This document shows positions 10,930-17,950 of a DNA stretch of 64,000 nucleotides, piece after piece. Every line of letters begins with the position of its first letter. Position 1 is the first letter of the stretch. Origin of the DNA: Planctomycetota bacterium (GTDB lineage Bacteria; Planctomycetota; UBA1135; UBA2386); NCBI GenBank assembly GCA_965223545.1, contig OZ245006.1, forward strand, positions 3,200,001 to 3,264,000, written 5' to 3'. Both the position numbers and the translations under genes were made by a program. Below the pieces are notes generated by a model. It did no database searches, was not told where the DNA came from, and was given only the letters and a program-made list of their open reading frames with translations.

Positions 10930-13292
10930 GGCTCGGCGGACTCGACCGTCAACAGGACGCAGACGGTAGGCGCCACCAGGAGCGCGCACAAGGTGCCGAC
11001 GCCCGCCGTCAGACCGATTCCCGCCAGCGACGGCTGGCCGGAGCACGCCAGCAGCAAGAAGCTCCACGACGTGGTCACTCCAGAAACCGCCACCGCCAGC
11101 AGGGTCGCCTCGAGGGCGCCGCGATCGCCCCGCACTTCGGCCAGAAACACCCCGGAGTCGACGCCGAGGCAGACGACGAACAGCAGCGCCACCAGCGAGA
11201 GCGTGTTGAGCTCGACGCCCAGCAACGCCACCACGCCCATGGCCGCCGCGGCGGCGAGCACTGCCGGCAGGTAGGCGATCGCCGTCGGTCTCAGCGCGCG
11301 GTGGCGCAGCAACACGAGCAGCAAGACCGCCACCAGCCCACCGCCCAGCAGGCGGCTCATGTCAGCGCGGTACGCACCATAGGCGCGACTGAGCACGGCC
11401 TCGATGTCGACCAACCGCGCGCCGTCGATCGCCGCCAACCGCGACTGCACCGCCGCCTCGTCGGCCAGCTCGTGCAAGAAGCTGACGAAGCCGACGCGCT
11501 CGCCCAGAGTGACGCGGAAGGAGCGCACCAGCGGCGCCATGGCGCTGCTCTCCAGCGCGGCCCAGGTCAACGGTGCGGGCGGCTCCGTCGCCAGCGAGGC
11601 CTGCGCCTCGGCGAACGCGTCAGCGCGGAAGCCGTGCGCGGCGAGCGCCGCCCGCAGCCGTGGCCAGACCTCCTCGCCCCGCGCGGCCGCGTCGATCGCC
11701 CGCTGCCGCGACGCGCTCGGCAGCCAACTGGCAAGCGAGCGCACCGCGCCGAGCTCGCCGGCGTCGACGGCGGCCGACAGCACACCGTGCACCGCATCGT
11801 TCACCTCGAGCGCGGCCTGCTCGTCGCTGCCGACCGCGACCACCAGCCGCCGCTGCTCGTAGCGCGTCACGCGCTCGACCACCGCTCGGTCCTCGGCGAG
11901 CAGCGCGGAGTCCGGAGCGTTGAGTCCGGCCAAACTGTCATTCCAACGCAAGCGCGGCAGCCCGACGGCGGCCACCGCGACCGCGAGCACGACCGGCAGC
12001 GCGAGGACCCAACGCCGCGCACCGCGTGGCGACAGCAGCCGCGCCAGCCCGCGCGACGCCCAGCGCGCACAGCCGCCGGCCGCTCCGGCCCCGGCCAGCG
12101 GTGGCAAGAACGCCCAGGTCGCCGCCAGGGCGGCGGCCACCCCGGCTGCCGCGAACCACGCCAGCTCGCGCAACCCCGGGTAGGCCGACACCGACAGGGC
12201 GGCGAACCCCAGCACCGTGGTGGCGGCACCGAGCGTCAGCGCGGGCAGGATCCGTCGCAGCGTGCAGCGCGGCCCGCCGGCGGCAGGCGCCAGCACGTGG
12301 TGGCAGTAGAAGTGCACGGCGTAATCGACGGACACGCCGATGAGCGCGGCGCCGAAGGCCAAGGTGAGCCCGTGCACCGCGCCGCCGGTGAGCAACACCG
12401 CGGTGGTGCCGGCGAGGAAAGCGGCACCGAGCACCGGCAGGACCATGAACACCAGGCGGACCGAGCGAAACAACAGCGCGAACAAGACGGCCAAGCCGAG
12501 CGCCGAGCCGATGCTGACCCGCTGGATGTCACTCTTGATTGCCGCCTCCGCCGCGACGGCGTAGCGATGGGCACCGCTCTGCAGCAGCGACCATTCGGCG
12601 CCGGAGGCGCGGCGCACGCGCTCGAACGCGGCACGCACCCCGGCGAGGAAGGGCCGCTGCTGGCCGGCGTCCACCGACGACGCCCGAGTCGCCAGGAACA
12701 GGACCGCAGCCGTGCCGTCGCCGCTGACAAAGCGGCCGTCGATCACTTGCAGCCCCTCTGCCCTGCCGCCGAGCCAACTCTGGAACAGTCCGGGAAGGAT
12801 CAACAGCGGGTCTCCCGGCGCGACCCGCGTCAGCAACGTCGACATCGGCGACGCCAACCGGCGCTTGAGGCCGGCGACGGCGTCGCCGATCCCTTCGGTC
12901 GACAACACCCGCGCCGCGGCGTCGGCATCGCCCGCGACGAACGACCACCGCCGCGGGTGGTACAACCGCCAGAGCTCTTCCTCCAAGTCCGGCGGAGGCC
13001 CGCCGTCGACGAACGCCAGCTGCTCCGCGACCCCCGGCTGCGCGCGCAGCGCGGCCTCGAACTCGCGACTGGCCCGCACCGCCGCCTCGGTGCTGCCCGT
13101 CTCCACCAGCAGCACCAACATGCGCGACAGCTCACCAGCAGCCAATTGCTTGGCCAGGCGCACGTCATCGCCAGGCGCGCCGTCGGGCAAGAAGTGCGCG
13201 ACGTCGGTGTTCACCGCCAAACGCGCGGCGACGAACCACGCCATCACCGCGAGCGCGGCAATCCCGACGGCGGCCCGCCGGCCAGCGGTCAC
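10926..13292 (-). CDS. MMPL/RND-family exporter (APE cluster type)
   Basis: Two TM bundles; VNTDVAHFLP, HGLTLAFGAALIGVSVDYAVH, CLGVDSGVFL. Confidence 0.88.
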   Translation of the reverse strand: MTAGRRAAVGIAALAVMAWFVAARLAVNTDVAHFLPDGAPGDDVRLAKQLAAGELSRMLVLLVETGSTEAAVRASREFEAALRAQPGVAEQLAFVDGGPPPDLEEELWRLYHPRRWSFVAGDADAAARVLSTEGIGDAVAGLKRRLASPMSTLLTRVAPGDPLLILPGLFQSWLGGRAEGLQVIDGRFVSGDGTAAVLFLATRASSVDAGQQRPFLAGVRAAFERVRRASGAEWSLLQSGAHRYAVAAEAAIKSDIQRVSIGSALGLAVLFALLFRSVRLVFMVLPVLGAAFLAGTTAVLLTGGAVHGLTLAFGAALIGVSVDYAVHFYCHHVLAPAAGGPRCTLRRILPALTLGAATTVLGFAALSVSAYPGLRELAWFAAAGVAAALAATWAFLPPLAGAGAAGGCARWASRGLARLLSPRGARRWVLALPVVLAVAVAAVGLPRLRWNDSLAGLNAPDSALLAEDRAVVERVTRYEQRRLVVAVGSDEQAALEVNDAVHGVLSAAVDAGELGAVRSLASWLPSASRQRAIDAAARGEEVWPRLRAALAAHGFRADAFAEAQASLATEPPAPLTWAALESSAMAPLVRSFRVTLGERVGFVSFLHELADEAAVQSRLAAIDGARLVDIEAVLSRAYGAYRADMSRLLGGGLVAVLLLVLLRHRALRPTAIAYLPAVLAAAAAMGVVALLGVELNTLSLVALLFVVCLGVDSGVFLAEVRGDRGALEATLLAVAVSGVTTSWSFLLLACSGQPSLAGIGLTAGVGTLCALLVAPTVCVLLTVESAEP

Positions 13293-14005
13293 CGCACAGC
13301 GCGCTCGCCGCGCTTGGCCTCGCCGCCTTCGGCGCGCCCCGCCTCGACAGCGGCCGGACCGAACAGCTGCCGCCGCTCGGCCGCGCTGAAGCGGCGCCGC
13401 GGATCGGCGGCCGTGATCCGCGTCACCGAGCGGTCGCCGTTGGGCTCCTGCACCTCCAGCTCCTCGACCGCCGCGCCGACGCCACGCAGCTCCAAGACTC
13501 GCAGCATCTTCGTCAGCGGCTCGCGCCGCGGCACCAGCCGCAGACGCCATCTCCCGTCATCCGGCGCCGGCACGAACTCGATTTCGTAGGCCTCTGCCAA
13601 CCCGGCCCGATCACCGGACAGCACGCGCACCAACGAGGTCACGAACACCCGCAGCGCGTCGTTCTGCCGCAGGTCGATCACCTCTTCGCCGTCCTCCCCG
13701 CGCATCCGCAGAGTCTTCGGCGTGATCACCAACTCGGTGCGCTCCGGAGCGGTGACGTGCCGGGCGAGAAAGCCGGGGTGCAGATAGTACAGCCGCCCGC
13801 GACTCTCCAGCGGCACCGCCAACAGGGACAGGTGCTTCTCCTCGACGAACTCGGCCTGCAGCCCGCGCACTTCGGCCAGCAGCGCGAGCAACTCGTCGGC
13901 GGTCGTCGGCGAGGGCGCCGCGACCGCGGCGCCCTCGTGCTCAACCTGCTGCGCGGACAGAGGCGTCACGAGCAGACAGCAACCGAGGACGGAGGTGCGC
14001 AACAT
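13289..14005 (-). CDS. LolA-like outer-membrane lipoprotein carrier
   Basis: Signal peptide; AEFVEEKHLSLLAVPLESRGRLYY, WRLRLVPR, EPNGDRSV. Confidence 0.82.
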   Translation of the reverse strand: MLRTSVLGCCLLVTPLSAQQVEHEGAAVAAPSPTTADELLALLAEVRGLQAEFVEEKHLSLLAVPLESRGRLYYLHPGFLARHVTAPERTELVITPKTLRMRGEDGEEVIDLRQNDALRVFVTSLVRVLSGDRAGLAEAYEIEFVPAPDDGRWRLRLVPRREPLTKMLRVLELRGVGAAVEELEVQEPNGDRSVTRITAADPRRRFSAAERRQLFGPAAVEAGRAEGGEAKRGERAVR

Positions 14006-14172
14006 TTCGTCGAGTCCAAAGCTTGGAGGCGTGGATTGTGTCGCGCTTCGACGACACAAGCCAGCGGTGTAGCGCAGACCGATGGGACACCGAGTGGCCG
14101 TGGTCCGAGCTTGGGTTTCACGGCAGCCGCCCCCTGCCCGAGCCGAAGCCCCTGCAGTAGAAGCCCACTGAC

Positions 14173-14871
14173 TCACGCCGGCCGCTCGCGGAAGTCCAAC
14201 CGCCCCCGCGACCGCCGCCACCCCCCCTTCAGCAGCCAGGTCCGCGCCCGCACCGTCGGCCGCGCCACCGGCTCCGACAGCTCCACCCCCTCGCGCCACC
14301 CGTCGAACCAGGGCCCGGACGAGTAGACGTCGATCGCCTGCCGCGGCCGCTGCCGGTGGTGCCAAGCATTCTGCAGCACATACACCAACGCCCGCCGCAC
14401 CTCCGTCGGCGAGCGCAGCACCCGCTCGTGAAACCGTTCGGCAAACACCCGCCCCGAACGCCCCCACAGCTTGTTCAACCCCCGCGCCATCCGCACCAAC
14501 AGCCCGGTCATCCCCCGCGTCAACGCCTCCCGATCCTTCGCCTCGACCAAGAGGTGCAAGTGATCGCGCTGCACCGAGAACTCCACCAACCGAAACCCGA
14601 ACCGCCCACACCCCGCCCGGATCCGCTCCACCAACATCCAGTAAGTCCGCGCATTCCGTAAGCCCGGCAACCCCCGACACAACCGCACCGTCACGTGCAA
14701 CGGATACCGCGCCACCAACGCCCCCCGCGCCAAGTGCGGCACCGTCTCATCACTCACCTTGGGCCGACCAGCCCCCTCCCGAGCCCCACCCCACTGCCGA
14801 AACGGCAACTCACCCTGCACCACCCCACGGCGTCGTCCACCGCGCCCCGATCGAACTGCCTTGCTCGTCAT
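14173..14871 (-). mobile_element. RAYT-like / Y1 HUH tyrosine transposase
   Basis: WGGAREGAGRPK N-terminus, PLHVTVR, FSVQRDHLHLLVEA (HUH motif), GRVFAERFHERVL, VYVLQN (catalytic Tyr). Confidence 0.88.
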
Positions 14872-14986
14872 TTGAATTAGCGACCTTATCAAAGAGGGAG
14901 TCAACATGCAAGAATCCGACAAGGAATCTGCGAAAGCGGCCGGCGAATCGCACGCTACCCTGCTCCCAACAATCTCGACTCCAGAA

Positions 14987-15088
14987 CTGAGGCGAGTGCG
15001 CTCCACTCCGCGACGAAAACCGCAATCTTGATTCCGCGACCTTCAGTCTAAGAGAGCCAGCCCATCAAATAGGATCGGGACCGCCGCC
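14987..15088 (+). repeat. 102-bp direct repeat, copy A (copy B at 17369-17470)
   Basis: By-eye alignment gives 8 substitutions in 102 bp and no indels. Confidence 0.92.
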
Positions 15089-15170
15089 CGCAGCTCCGTC
15101 ACCATCGGCGTCGGTCGCACCCTGTGCCTCGTCTTGGACCGATGCTGATGGTGATGGAGCTGCGGGCAGC
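15083..15170. repeat. Long REP/REPIN-like palindrome (34-bp stem, 20-nt loop)
   Basis: GCCGCCCGCAGCTCCGTCACCATCGGCGTCGGTC (15083-15116) pairs with GACCGATGCTGATGGTGATGGAGCTGCGGGCAGC (15137-15170), with 1 mismatch and 3 G-T pairs. Confidence 0.9.
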
Positions 15171-15275
15171 CCCGCTAGCTCTCGATCCAGAGGCCGAGGG
15201 AGCAAGCGCTCGCGCTTCCCTCTCCTGCTCCCACACACCTCCAGCTCCAGAGCTGAAGGCTCGCCTCACCACCAT

Positions 15276-17308
15276 GCCGAGTAGCCGCGGGGGGTTGCCC
15301 CCCCGCAGCTCTCACAGAACCGGACTTGTGGGTCACACATCCGGCTCTTCAGGACGGTATCCCCCAAAGGGGCCGCCAGTCGTAACGGCGCTCGTCCCAG
15401 AGCTTGGAAAGCGACACCAGCCGCTCAGCAAACCACTGATTGGGATAAGCGCGTTTGATCGCTCCCGAGTTGCTCTGCCACCACGTGCCACGCCGGCCAA
15501 ACGCGGTGCGTGCAGCCGACTGCCAGCTGCACCCACGGGCGACAAGGTCTCGGAAGAGGTATCGCGGTCTCTTCTTCTGCCGAATGATGATCGCCCGCAG
15601 GCGTCGTCGAATATGGCCATCGAGATTCCGCAAGGTCCGCCACGCGGCCTTCGTGATCAGCTTGAAGTAGCCGATCCAACCACGGAGGTAACGGTTCAGT
15701 CGTTCGATGCACCAGGACAGCCGACCACCCCAGGACCGCGGCGTAAGCTCACGGATTCGGGCGTCGATGCGATCCAGAGTGCGACGGGACAACTGCACCG
15801 TCAGCCAGCCCTTTCGAGTTGCGCCTACGCGAAACCCGAGGAAGTGCCGGCGATGGGCCAGGTCGACGGAACTCTTCGCTTCGTTCACTTTCAGTCGCAC
15901 GCGACGTTCGATGAACCTGCGAATCGAAGCCATGACCCGGTGTCCTGAGCGCTCGCTACCGACGTAGATATTGCAGTCGTCGGCGTAGCGCACAAAACGC
16001 AACCCGCGTCGTTCCAACTCCCAGTCCAGTTCGTCCAGGACGATGTTGGACAGCAGAGGTGATAGCGGGCCGCCCTGGGGCGTTCCTTCTTCCGTGATGA
16101 CGCGGGTGCCATCTGGAAGAACCACGTTCGCTTTCAGCATCAGGCGGATGATCCGCAGCACCCGACGGTCCTTCACCTTCTGAGCCAGCCGGTCCAGGAG
16201 GCGTTGGTGATGGACACGGTCGAAGAACTTCTCCAAATCGATGTCCACCGTGTACCGCCGACCCTGCTTCACGTAACCCGCTGCTTCGGCGATCGCTGTG
16301 TGGGCTCCCCGCCTCGGCCGGAAGCCGTGGCTGCTGTCGTGGAACGTCGGGTCGTAGATCGGCTCCAGAATCTGGCGCACGGCCTGTTGGACCCAGCGGT
16401 CGATCACGGTTGGAATCCCGAGACCCCGCTGCCCACCACTGGGCTTCGGGATCCACACCCGACGAATATCGCCGGGCGCGTAGGTCTCCATGAGCAGAGC
16501 ATCGCGGAGTTTCGGGAGCAGGTGTTTCGCATGACGCTTGACCTCTGACACCGTCTGTCCGTCGACGCCCGGGGCGCCCTTCTTGCTTACGACATGTGCC
16601 AGTGCGCTTCGCAGGTTGCCCTGCTCCGCGACCAGCTCCAGCAGATGGCAGTAGCCGTCCGCTGGCGGTGGAGCCGATTCCGATCGATGGCTGCAATCCG
16701 TCGTAGGCACCGACGTGGACTTCGTGGCAGATTCGTCTGCCCTTCCGGCCACGCCGTCCCCTTGCGGGCTCTCGGCGAAAGCGAACTGCAGTTGCCGTGG
16801 TTTCGGCTTTCTCATCCTGTCACCCCCTTCGCTCCACCGGCATTACCCGGCTTCATCACTACTACGGGGTGATCCGACTTCGCTGCATGCCTTGGTGGGT
16901 CGTCGTTGCCTCCTCCCCACCTACCGCTCGAAGCGGACACACAGAGATCTCCCTGGGTAAGAACGCAGAGTTTCGCGCCGCCGCCGGTTCCAGTACTCCG
17001 AGGTCGCGACTGGATATCGGGCGTCACGTTGGATGGCACGCTGACCCAGACCTCGAGAGCCTTACGGAACTTCGCTTTCGCTCGGTGCTGCGCTGCGTCT
17101 AGGGCTTCCATCCCACACGACCTCGCGGGAACAGCACGGCACGGTGTCCGTCCTGTTCTGGCATCCCGGATCAACACCGCGCACCGCCCTCTCGGACGGC
17201 ACACGGCTCCCCTTTCTGCCTCGTGCAGCTGCCTTCGACTCATGGTTTCCTCCAGTACGGATCCATAAAGAACTTTCATCTTCAACTCTGCGCCCATGCC
17301 AGGCGCAA
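15276..17308 (-). mobile_element. Group II intron, IIC-like, about 2033 nt
   Basis: 5' TTGCGCCTGGCATGGGCGCAG; DI end CTGCGTTCTTACCCAGGGAGATCT; DIII GTAGTAGTGATGAAGCCGGGTAATGCCGGTGGAGCGAAGGG; DV GAGCCGGATGTGTGACCCACAAGTCCGGTTC; DVI ending CTACTCGGC. Joined exons restore a palindrome arm. Confidence 0.9.
15349..16815 (-). CDS. ltrA: Group II intron reverse transcriptase/maturase (no En domain)
   Basis: GAPGVDG, IPKPSGGQRGLGIPTVIDR, SHGFRP, DLEKFFD, GTPQGGPLSPLLSNI, RYADD, X domain LNRYLRGWIGYF; no HNH tail. Confidence 0.96.
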   Translation of the reverse strand: MRKPKPRQLQFAFAESPQGDGVAGRADESATKSTSVPTTDCSHRSESAPPPADGYCHLLELVAEQGNLRSALAHVVSKKGAPGVDGQTVSEVKRHAKHLLPKLRDALLMETYAPGDIRRVWIPKPSGGQRGLGIPTVIDRWVQQAVRQILEPIYDPTFHDSSHGFRPRRGAHTAIAEAAGYVKQGRRYTVDIDLEKFFDRVHHQRLLDRLAQKVKDRRVLRIIRLMLKANVVLPDGTRVITEEGTPQGGPLSPLLSNIVLDELDWELERRGLRFVRYADDCNIYVGSERSGHRVMASIRRFIERRVRLKVNEAKSSVDLAHRRHFLGFRVGATRKGWLTVQLSRRTLDRIDARIRELTPRSWGGRLSWCIERLNRYLRGWIGYFKLITKAAWRTLRNLDGHIRRRLRAIIIRQKKRPRYLFRDLVARGCSWQSAARTAFGRRGTWWQSNSGAIKRAYPNQWFAERLVSLSKLWDERRYDWRPLWGIPS

Positions 17309-17371
17309 CACCGACGACAGCGGTCCAAGACGAGGCACGGGGTGCGACCGCCGCCGACGGTGACGGAGCTG
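17309..17371. repeat. Inverted second copy of the 15083-15170 palindrome, cut by the intron
   Basis: CACCGACGACAGCGGTCCAAGACGAGGCACGGGGTGCGACCGCCGCCGACGGTGACGGAGCTG closely matches the reverse complement of about 15091-15153. Confidence 0.88.
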
Positions 17372-17494
17372 AGGCGAGTGCGCTCCACTCCGCGACGAAA
17401 ACCGCAATCTTGATTCCGCTACCTTCAGTCCCAGAGGGCCAGGCCATCAAACACGACCGGGACCGCCGCCAGCTCTCGATCCAGAGGCCGAGGG
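17369..17494 (+). repeat. Direct repeat copy B plus a 24-bp tail (tail identical to 15177-15200)
   Basis: 17369-17470 matches 14987-15088; AGCTCTCGATCCAGAGGCCGAGGG occurs at both 17471-17494 and 15177-15200. Confidence 0.9.
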
Positions 17495-17509
17495 CTTCCG
17501 GAGGCGGGA

Positions 17510-17950
17510 CTACTCACCATGGTTGACGCTCGGCTCCGGCAGGCGCGCCAGCAGCGCGTCGGGCGTCGTCGCCAACAGCGTCCCGTCAGCGTCGGTGGTC
17601 GCCAACACGGTCGTCGCCCGCGCGCTCCACCGGTCCACCTCGGGGTTGCGGACGTCGTAGCTGATGCGAATCAGCGGCGAGACCTGGCCGAACCACGCGG
17701 TTACGTGCACTGGGTCGCCGTAGTGCAGAGGCGCCATGTAGCGGCACTTCGCCTCGACGACGTACATGCGGAAGCCGAGCTCGCGGATCTGGTGCACTTC
17801 GAGATCGACGCTGGCGAACAGGGCGGCGCGGGCGACTTCCAGCCACTCGAAGTAGCGGCCGTGCCAGGCGACGTTCAGCGGGTCGCAGTGGTGGAACGAC
17901 ACGCGGGTCGTGCTGAGGATGGCGTGTTCCGGGCGTCGGATGCGCGTCAC
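17510..17950 (-). CDS. Acyl-CoA/ACP thioesterase (4HBT/YbgC-like hotdog)
   Basis: RVSFHHCDPLNVAWHGRYFEWLEVAR..CRYMAPLHYGD. Confidence 0.88.
   Translation of the reverse strand: MTRIRRPEHAILSTTRVSFHHCDPLNVAWHGRYFEWLEVARAALFASVDLEVHQIRELGFRMYVVEAKCRYMAPLHYGDPVHVTAWFGQVSPLIRISYDVRNPEVDRWSARATTVLATTDADGTLLATTPDALLARLPEPSVNHGE

Follow-up and report, generated by a model that had tools for sequence, protein, structure and literature searches.

Group IIC introns are described in PMC1702495 as having a domain V with a distal stem 2 bp shorter and as lying after terminators or other inverted repeats. A smaller fraction resides at attC sites (PMC4424553, PMC3001079). In PMC8919778, g1 is linked with Actinobacteriota, and U1 and U2 with terminators. 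In the E.r. IIC structure a DNA stem of ~12 bp is recognised by its shape; after it come a single-stranded spacer, intron-binding site 1 (IBS1) and IBS3 (PMC10190682). Repetitive extragenic palindromes (REPs) have been found as insertion sites as well, namely for 2 of 9 copies of a P. putida group II intron (PMC1525189). Here we describe a group II intron in a 64,000-nt stretch of a Planctomycetota genome (contig OZ245006.1, positions 3,200,001 to 3,264,000; the window, in whose coordinates the features below are given). It interrupts a long palindrome next to a Y1-HUH transposase gene that resembles the REP-associated tyrosine transposases (RAYTs). Our reading, with a probability of roughly 0.68, is that an active class C-type intron without endonuclease retrohomes by the IIC route into the hairpins that accompany this HUH gene.

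Intron boundaries and structure

The intron spans 15276-17308 on the minus strand (2033 nt), starts with UUGCG and ends with GC. The source genome of the window (G000, contig C1; 8.1 Mb, 70% GC) contains 14 full copies of 2033-2034 nt with 99.4-100% identity, and this near-identity suggests recent mobility. All copies have the same first and last bases in differing flanks. Because the flanks vary, both ends are fixed exactly, and the coordinates proposed in a preliminary description of the locus hold to the base. As had also been noted there, removal of the intron restores an inverted relative of the palindrome at 15083-15170 (86% alike); once joined, the exons correspond to unoccupied palindromes of the same family. 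Two copies (G000:C1:1,355,549-1,357,582 and 6,127,148-6,129,181) have a 1-nt insertion near the end of the open reading frame (ORF) in common, which alters the last residues.

Domains V and VI are located at 15276-15347 on the minus strand (fold z = -5.6). Domain V (15317-15347) is 31 nt long and has an AGC triad, a short distal stem and an AA bulge, while domain VI carries a bulged A at 15282. The ORF at 15349-16815 (minus) encodes a reverse transcriptase/maturase of 488 aa with a YADD motif. It matches Pfam RVT_1 and GIIM only, the endonuclease domain being absent, and reaches 373 bits with TIGR04416 (cut-off 300). The core of domain I (16962-17132, minus) matches Rfam RF02001 with 73 bits. 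Exon-binding site 1 (EBS1, CAUC) was assigned to 17032-17035 (minus) on the basis of covariation with IBS1. An AGGAA motif is present around intron position 50. The terminal C of the intron fits the G of J2/3 (GGA), both bases being constant across 20 aligned introns.

The 5’ exon (17309-17378, minus) consists of the 5’ arm (17346-17378), a 20-nt loop (17326-17345) and the first 17 nt of the 3’ arm, and ends with IBS1 (GGTG, 17309-17312, minus). The 3’ exon (15260-15275, minus) is the distal portion of the 3’ arm of the interrupted palindrome, with IBS3 (the +1 base) at 15275. From ~6% of one RNA run, 0 reads were obtained.

The palindrome family and its occupancy

The empty palindrome at 15083-15170 has 34-nt arms and a 20-nt loop, its favoured strand being the plus strand. 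Palindromes of this family were counted by a strict pattern after in silico removal of the intron (arms ~30 nt, loops 11-20 nt), excluding a few arms without a partner and one degenerate member near 6.578 Mb. The family comprises 26 copies in the genome. Of these, 23 lie beside HUH genes in mosaic arrays upstream and three in the 5’ region of an ISL3 element (NF033550, 318 bits) present in three copies. The intron occupies 13 of the 26 (11 in HUH arrays, 2 in ISL3), and one or more introns are present at 8 of 13 HUH loci. The insertions in ISL3 are identical to each other. Conversely, 13 of the 14 intron copies lie within the family, which is far above chance given the 98,619 G-R-T-G/R sites of the genome; no copy follows a terminator. 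The preliminary description had named copies after terminators or unrelated sequence, and a palindrome unique to this locus or unlinked to RAYT, as findings that would speak against it; neither holds, and beside homologous HUH genes related palindromes also occur in 2 of the 19 other genomes sampled.

The array around the intron is built of modules. A spacer module at 14984-15091 (no strand assigned) is a 108-nt direct repeat that returns at 17366-17473 with 91% identity and recurs upstream of further HUH copies. The outer modules at 17366-17494 (no strand assigned) are copies of 14984-15091 and 15165-15200. As a separate observation, the ISL3 copies (L287, G000:C1:2,606,800-2,608,600; 99.7% identity) carry a short-loop variant of the palindrome between the element end and the transposase start.

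With a terminator model, the sole terminator-like site in 14000-17700 was away from the splice site (shuffles gave 2.6). A short-pattern search for the palindrome in 100 genomes of the class returned matches of which 14 were fetched; they were chance matches, none palindromic or near HUH or intron genes. Junctions of the 20-nt (X5, X9) and 14-nt (X10) type are also present on contigs from three other studies, and these contigs probably belong to the same or a very close species.

Strand, register and base pairing

The preliminary description had placed the insertion just downstream of a hairpin. This has to be corrected: the insertion point lies inside the 3’ arm of the stem. The 17-nt arm reported to abut the 5’ splice site does so, in that 17309-17325 pairs with 17346-17362 (two G.T wobbles and one T-T mismatch), though the stem runs on into the 3’ exon. 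In 13 of 13 folds the stem extends beyond the splice site, and in one subtype it is perfect.

Across the 14 copies all 5’ exons end with G-R-T-G, which pairs with EBS1 (CAUC), and all 3’ exons begin with a purine. The insertion strand is the one with the more stable apical hairpin in 13 of 13 cases. That strand folds better in all 26 hairpins (median 3.6 kcal/mol) because it has G.T wobbles where the other strand has A-C mismatches. Although each of the 26 hairpins also has IBS1 matches on the opposite strand, none of these is used (p = 0.0002 if the insertions are independent, 0.004 for 9 events). Insertions are found 14 nt (one), 17 nt (four) or 20 nt (eight) from the loop down the 3’ arm. 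Sites at 23 and 26 nt are offered six times each and never used. The used registers leave 10-16 bp above IBS1, which fits the ~12-bp stem of the IIC structure.

These rules bear on the idea that the intron homes by sequence only into double-stranded DNA, via a longer EBS2-like pairing or protein contacts, with the hairpin being incidental. The targets are indeed one conserved repeat, and the 3-nt periodicity of the arm gives the registers a similar sequence context. However, exon positions -5 to -12 vary among the sites, the opposite strand with similar sequence is unused, and domain I matches the Rfam model of class C and not the one matched by other classes. We regard such homing as highly improbable.

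Specificity and independence of the insertions

Of the 98,619 G-R-T-G/R sites, 189 have a stem score of at least 13. They collapse to 140 strand-loci, with 13 of 30 occupied in the family and 0 of 110 elsewhere (Fisher 1.7e-10). This contrast is overstated, because many of the 110 controls look coding, so that selection may act on them, and because the copies are related.

Five junction types occur within the family. One intron haplotype is found at three of them, one junction type holds several haplotypes, and the insertion flanks match the local array variant. The introns are 99.4-100% identical and the HUH copies 92.4-97.7%, by which measure the introns are the younger of the two. Owing to the junction types, the haplotypes crossing them, the local-variant flanks and the older host genes, the events are best read as mostly independent retrohoming. 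For the ISL3 pair, and likewise for a tandem pair, a single event may be responsible.

Passive spread would offer another route to the same distribution: after few homing events, HUH arrays and ISL3 elements that already bore the intron would have been duplicated, transposed or copied by gene conversion. The arrays are homologous on both sides, the ISL3 insertions are identical, and two adjacent intron copies near 6.35 Mb have one junction type in common. The crossing of haplotypes and five junction types, flanks that were not co-converted, and introns far more alike than their host elements argue against it; even with only five events, the chance that all of them fall within 27 of 137 candidate loci is small (p ~2e-4). 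Passive spread is thereby largely refuted and explains at most a few copies; as a general account we consider it very unlikely.

The HUH gene and its element

The gene at 14173-14871 (minus, ATG at 14871) encodes a Y1-HUH transposase of 232 aa with the motifs DHLH and YVLQNA. It starts 212 nt from 15083, in agreement with the ~200 bp noted previously. The protein scores 25.8 bits with Pfam Y1_Tnp (cut-off 23), and its Atlas neighbours are Y1_Tnp. With NCBIfam REP_Tyr_transpos (NF047646) it reaches 35.4 bits and 7 of 7 homologs reach 44-58 bits (cut-off 80). It is nearer to RAYT than to IS200 TnpA but stays below the cut-offs of both. The HUH motif and the single Tyr are conserved in the homologs, and in those compared the signature is N-A, N-G or N-H, never N-P. 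By inspection, a GT[AG]G foot was not seen at the palindromes. A search of PDB sequences with the protein gave no match.

The genome holds 12 full copies and one fragment. Arrays are found upstream of the copies only, similarity stops at the stop codon, and all but 3 of the 26 palindromes are next to the gene. The earlier designation as RAYT does not hold up, given 35 bits against a cut-off of 80, the missing N-P signature and foot, and 12 copies at 92.4-97.7% identity. We therefore call the gene RAYT-like, not RAYT; judged from these comparisons it behaves like a mobile element, and its protein may act on the palindrome.

HUH homologs are present in 20 of 60 relatives, with at least 47 matches in one genome. 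Of 27 HUH loci sampled in 19 other genomes, 4 (in G011 and G017) have related palindromes beside the gene, with significant similarity to those of the source genome (0 of 500 shuffles as high in both comparisons); at the loci sampled in the remaining 17 genomes, no related palindrome was found. In a comparison by hand of G017, 18 of the 23 genes listed (of 33) have the arm motif within ~110 nt downstream. As it is found at HUH homologs in other genomes, the palindrome is a conserved companion of some family members.

Several further observations concern the element. Two other Y1 genes in the source genome (YIDHNP type) are without a flanking palindrome. The 3’ end of the HUH ORF (14173-14225) resembles the loop-proximal sequence of the palindrome and may be the right end of the element; a remnant with one arm stands alone at G000:C1 ~7,282,350. 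The element is flanked by a LolA-like gene (13289-14023) and a thioesterase gene (17510-17950) in a same-strand gene run, with which the intron is co-oriented. This run presumably represents something like an aryl-polyene-type cluster. In another genome (G040:C1 ~610,550-612,610, L018) an unrelated group II intron with a domain V of standard length, a match to RF02005 and a GC end sits in the 5’ arm of a short hairpin ~200 nt upstream of a gene of the same HUH family. Empty equivalents of that site exist (L121, L138), and a similar intron lies upstream of an HUH gene in G047 (L015).

The intron clade and its targets

Domain V pattern and protein searches yielded 143 oriented loci, 19 of them with both ends and at least 48% protein identity. 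This cut excluded a distant group (30-41% protein identity) also caught by the domain V pattern. A FastTree phylogeny was built from 74 proteins (33 with the AGC pattern, 9 others and every second one of 64 with CGC; 410 columns), none of them from a named reference intron. The protein of the present intron falls into a clade of 31 (support 0.994) whose sister group consists of 30 class C proteins of the CGC type. Two CGC rows and three distant rows with the AGC pattern lie outside these groups, and the root is weak (0.365). The AGC triad in place of CGC is found in this intron and across the clade. RF02001 is matched by 7 of 7 CGC loci (116-144 bits), 4 of 4 AGC loci (78-82 bits) and this intron, whereas 4 of 4 loci of other classes match RF02005.

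In 19 introns, EBS1 and IBS1 pair at 66 of 76 positions, where 10,000 shuffles gave a mean of 37 and a maximum of 54; one intron had been dropped for its 3-nt flank. In 18 of the 19 all three core positions pair. Among 20 introns EBS1 takes 15 distinct 3-mers, which indicates that the clade has reprogrammed it many times. The intron is a member of a class C-related clade with the short domain V of the IIC type and an AGC triad. The former label IIC-like was apt for the protein grouping, short domain V, AGGAA motif, domain I and 3-4 bp of EBS1-IBS1 pairing, but not for the CGC triad: the intron works like a IIC intron yet fails one defining IIC feature.

Stems at AGC sites are better than local controls (p = 0.001). 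U-tracts are absent from the 17 sites of the AGC clade; T-runs of at least 4 occur at 13 of 22 CGC and 0 of 17 AGC sites, a comparison confounded by GC content. One clade member (L034) follows a perfect palindrome at a distance of 4 nt and seems to lie within an opposite-strand gene. In 338 genomes of the class, a DNA search revealed no close relative of the intron; the best match (G542) has 72% over domain I, a GUGCG start and an unrelated context. The source genome itself contains a partial match to a second group II intron of a different class (L288, G000:C1 ~4,530,300-4,531,540; RF02005).

Relatives at 65-82% lie mostly on contigs of 1.5-4.6 kb. The closest complete relative (L146; 75% protein identity) has the same odd ends and an EBS1 changed to CCUC, matching its own target. 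Its insertion site is mid-arm, at 15 nt, in a 33-bp palindrome that directly follows an IS1182 transposase. This target is relevant for the question whether the lineage is a dedicated parasite of the HUH element that reads the palindrome family specifically by sequence or loop, and may use single-stranded DNA made by the HUH protein or the 3’-OH of its nick as primer. Three of five pairwise comparisons between the L146 target and family members, chosen after inspection, are significant (0, 1 and 1 of 500 shuffles as high). Two are not, and against the family profile it scores 0.6 bits, with 22 of 500 shuffles as high. Other repeats of the genome that could compete for the intron are unused, 8 of 13 HUH loci carry it, 4 of 13 palindrome insertions run against the fork direction, and the unrelated intron class in G040 likewise lies in a hairpin upstream of an HUH homolog. 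On the other hand, 2 of 3 ISL3 palindromes are occupied more than 450 kb from any HUH gene, the targets of the clade are diverse in sequence, and an HUH homolog was found at 0 of 143 relative loci, many of which are short or belong to the excluded group. We judge such dedication unlikely, though to be taken seriously. The palindromes are borne out as homing target in the source genome (13 of 14 copies), as had been proposed; a lineage devoted to RAYT is unproven, since no locus of a relative carries an HUH gene, 2 of 13 sites lie in ISL3 and L146 stands beside IS1182.

Proposed mechanism

The sequence establishes where the intron begins and ends, how many copies exist, which palindrome family they target, on which strand and in which register, and that EBS1 and IBS1 covary. 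Retrohoming by the IIC route would then proceed as follows. The ribonucleoprotein (RNP) would reverse-splice into single-stranded DNA, with the intron protein gripping the apical 10-16 bp of the DNA hairpin, presumably by shape as in the E.r. IIC structure. EBS1 (CAUC) would pair with G-R-T-G in the 3’ arm just below, followed by a purine at +1, and thereby pick the register. The lower stem may be locally unpaired, not yet zipped or opened by the RNP, by which IBS1 would be freed. Priming could take place at the replication fork. Purifying selection against insertions into coding regions probably adds to the apparent specificity. The preferred hairpin would be the long palindrome of a multi-copy Y1-HUH element, which is intergenic, repeated and harmless, and not a terminator.

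This reading accounts for strand, register and covariation. Several points weigh against the proposal. The 14th intron copy (2.459 Mb) lies outside the family at a weak hairpin (stem score 4.5). Some sites have their IBS1 within a 33-bp stem that is paired throughout, while the structure requires it to be single-stranded. Orientation with the replication fork, deduced from GC skew, holds for 10 of 14 copies, which is not significant (p = 0.09). Of 17 clade sites, just 6 have a stem above the 95th percentile of the local scores, and the related copies and coding-like controls weaken the contrast with other strand-loci. Moreover a repeat of 57 copies, 39 with GATG/R at the stem end, is unused, and so are several perfect doublets of a REP-like family with a GTAC head and a short hairpin (113 matches in 80 clusters, all unused). 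A generic hairpin rule alone fails to explain these competitors. Their geometry differs, and the unused families are for this reason no proof of sequence specificity. Since unused competitors and access within a perfect stem are not fully accounted for, there is room for family-specific recognition or help by the HUH protein.

As to the repeats themselves, the 57-copy repeat has a ~195-nt period and occurs singly or in tandem runs of up to six, one at 3,239,834 (window ~39,830). The GTAC family is found e.g. at G000:C1 58,675, 1,404,829 and 6,975,198, with neither of the other Y1 genes nearby.

A bolder interpretation would make this class C offshoot with its AGC triad and UUGCG...GC ends a specialist parasite of an undescribed mobile RAYT-like element, recognising one strand of the palindrome, opening the paired stem and possibly priming from single-stranded DNA or nicks generated by the HUH protein. 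We hold it to be doubtful. If HUH-primed reverse transcription were true, a retroelement would be coupled to an HUH transposase.

Comparison with known systems

The locus provides a natural dataset on target choice of the IIC type, with 13 insertions in 26 near-identical hairpins and rules readable from one genome, including an IBS1 buried in the stem where the solved structure needs it free. Adjoining class C, the AGC-triad clade avoids terminators and has often reprogrammed EBS1, and may be useful for hairpin-directed insertion tools. The RAYT-like element, with its multiple copies and a palindrome conserved between genera, is informative on the origin of REP-associated transposases from mobile elements or their return to that state. 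In a literature search covering few subscription papers, we found no description of an AGC-triad class C clade, nor of an intron that specialises in REP- or RAYT-flanking palindromes.

The class C introns known from terminators (B.h.I1, E.r. intron, GsI-IIC) have a CGC triad where this intron has AGC, and the usual IIC ends GUGYG...AY contrast with UUGCG...GC. Here a U-tract is missing, and IBS1, which in those introns follows a single-stranded spacer, is part of the 3’ arm within a longer stem. With IIC-attC introns such as S.ma.I2 (PMC3001079), the intron has in common the strand-specific insertion into a repeated, recombinase-associated imperfect palindrome. In contrast to them, its target is associated with a Y1-HUH gene and three registers are used; the targets flank HUH genes or lie in ISL3, not attC, although no dedicated attC scan was made.

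The element resembles the REPtrons of RAYT/TnpA-REP and TIRYT (TnpA-Y1 class 2), as outlined in PMC6006769, by the HUH motif with a single Tyr, by being closer to REP_Tyr_transpos than to IS200 TnpA, and by mosaic palindrome arrays. Unlike the RAYTs outlined there, its protein is below the cut-off, has Y-x-x-x-N-A/G and not Y-x-x-x-N-P, and lacks the GT[AG]G foot. RAYTs have few and divergent copies and their REPs are dispersed through the genome, whereas this gene is present in 12 copies of ~95% nucleotide identity and only 3 of the 26 palindromes lie away from it. Landing of a mobile element in repeated extragenic palindromes is also known from the REP-targeting insertion sequences ISPa11, ISPpu9 and ISPpu10 and from the P. 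putida intron (PMC1525189). Different from these cases, we deal here with a retroelement with 13 of 14 copies in the family and fixed registers set by RNA-DNA pairing. Taken together, the choice of DNA hairpins is a known habit of IIC introns; what is new here is a palindrome family accompanying an HUH gene as the target.

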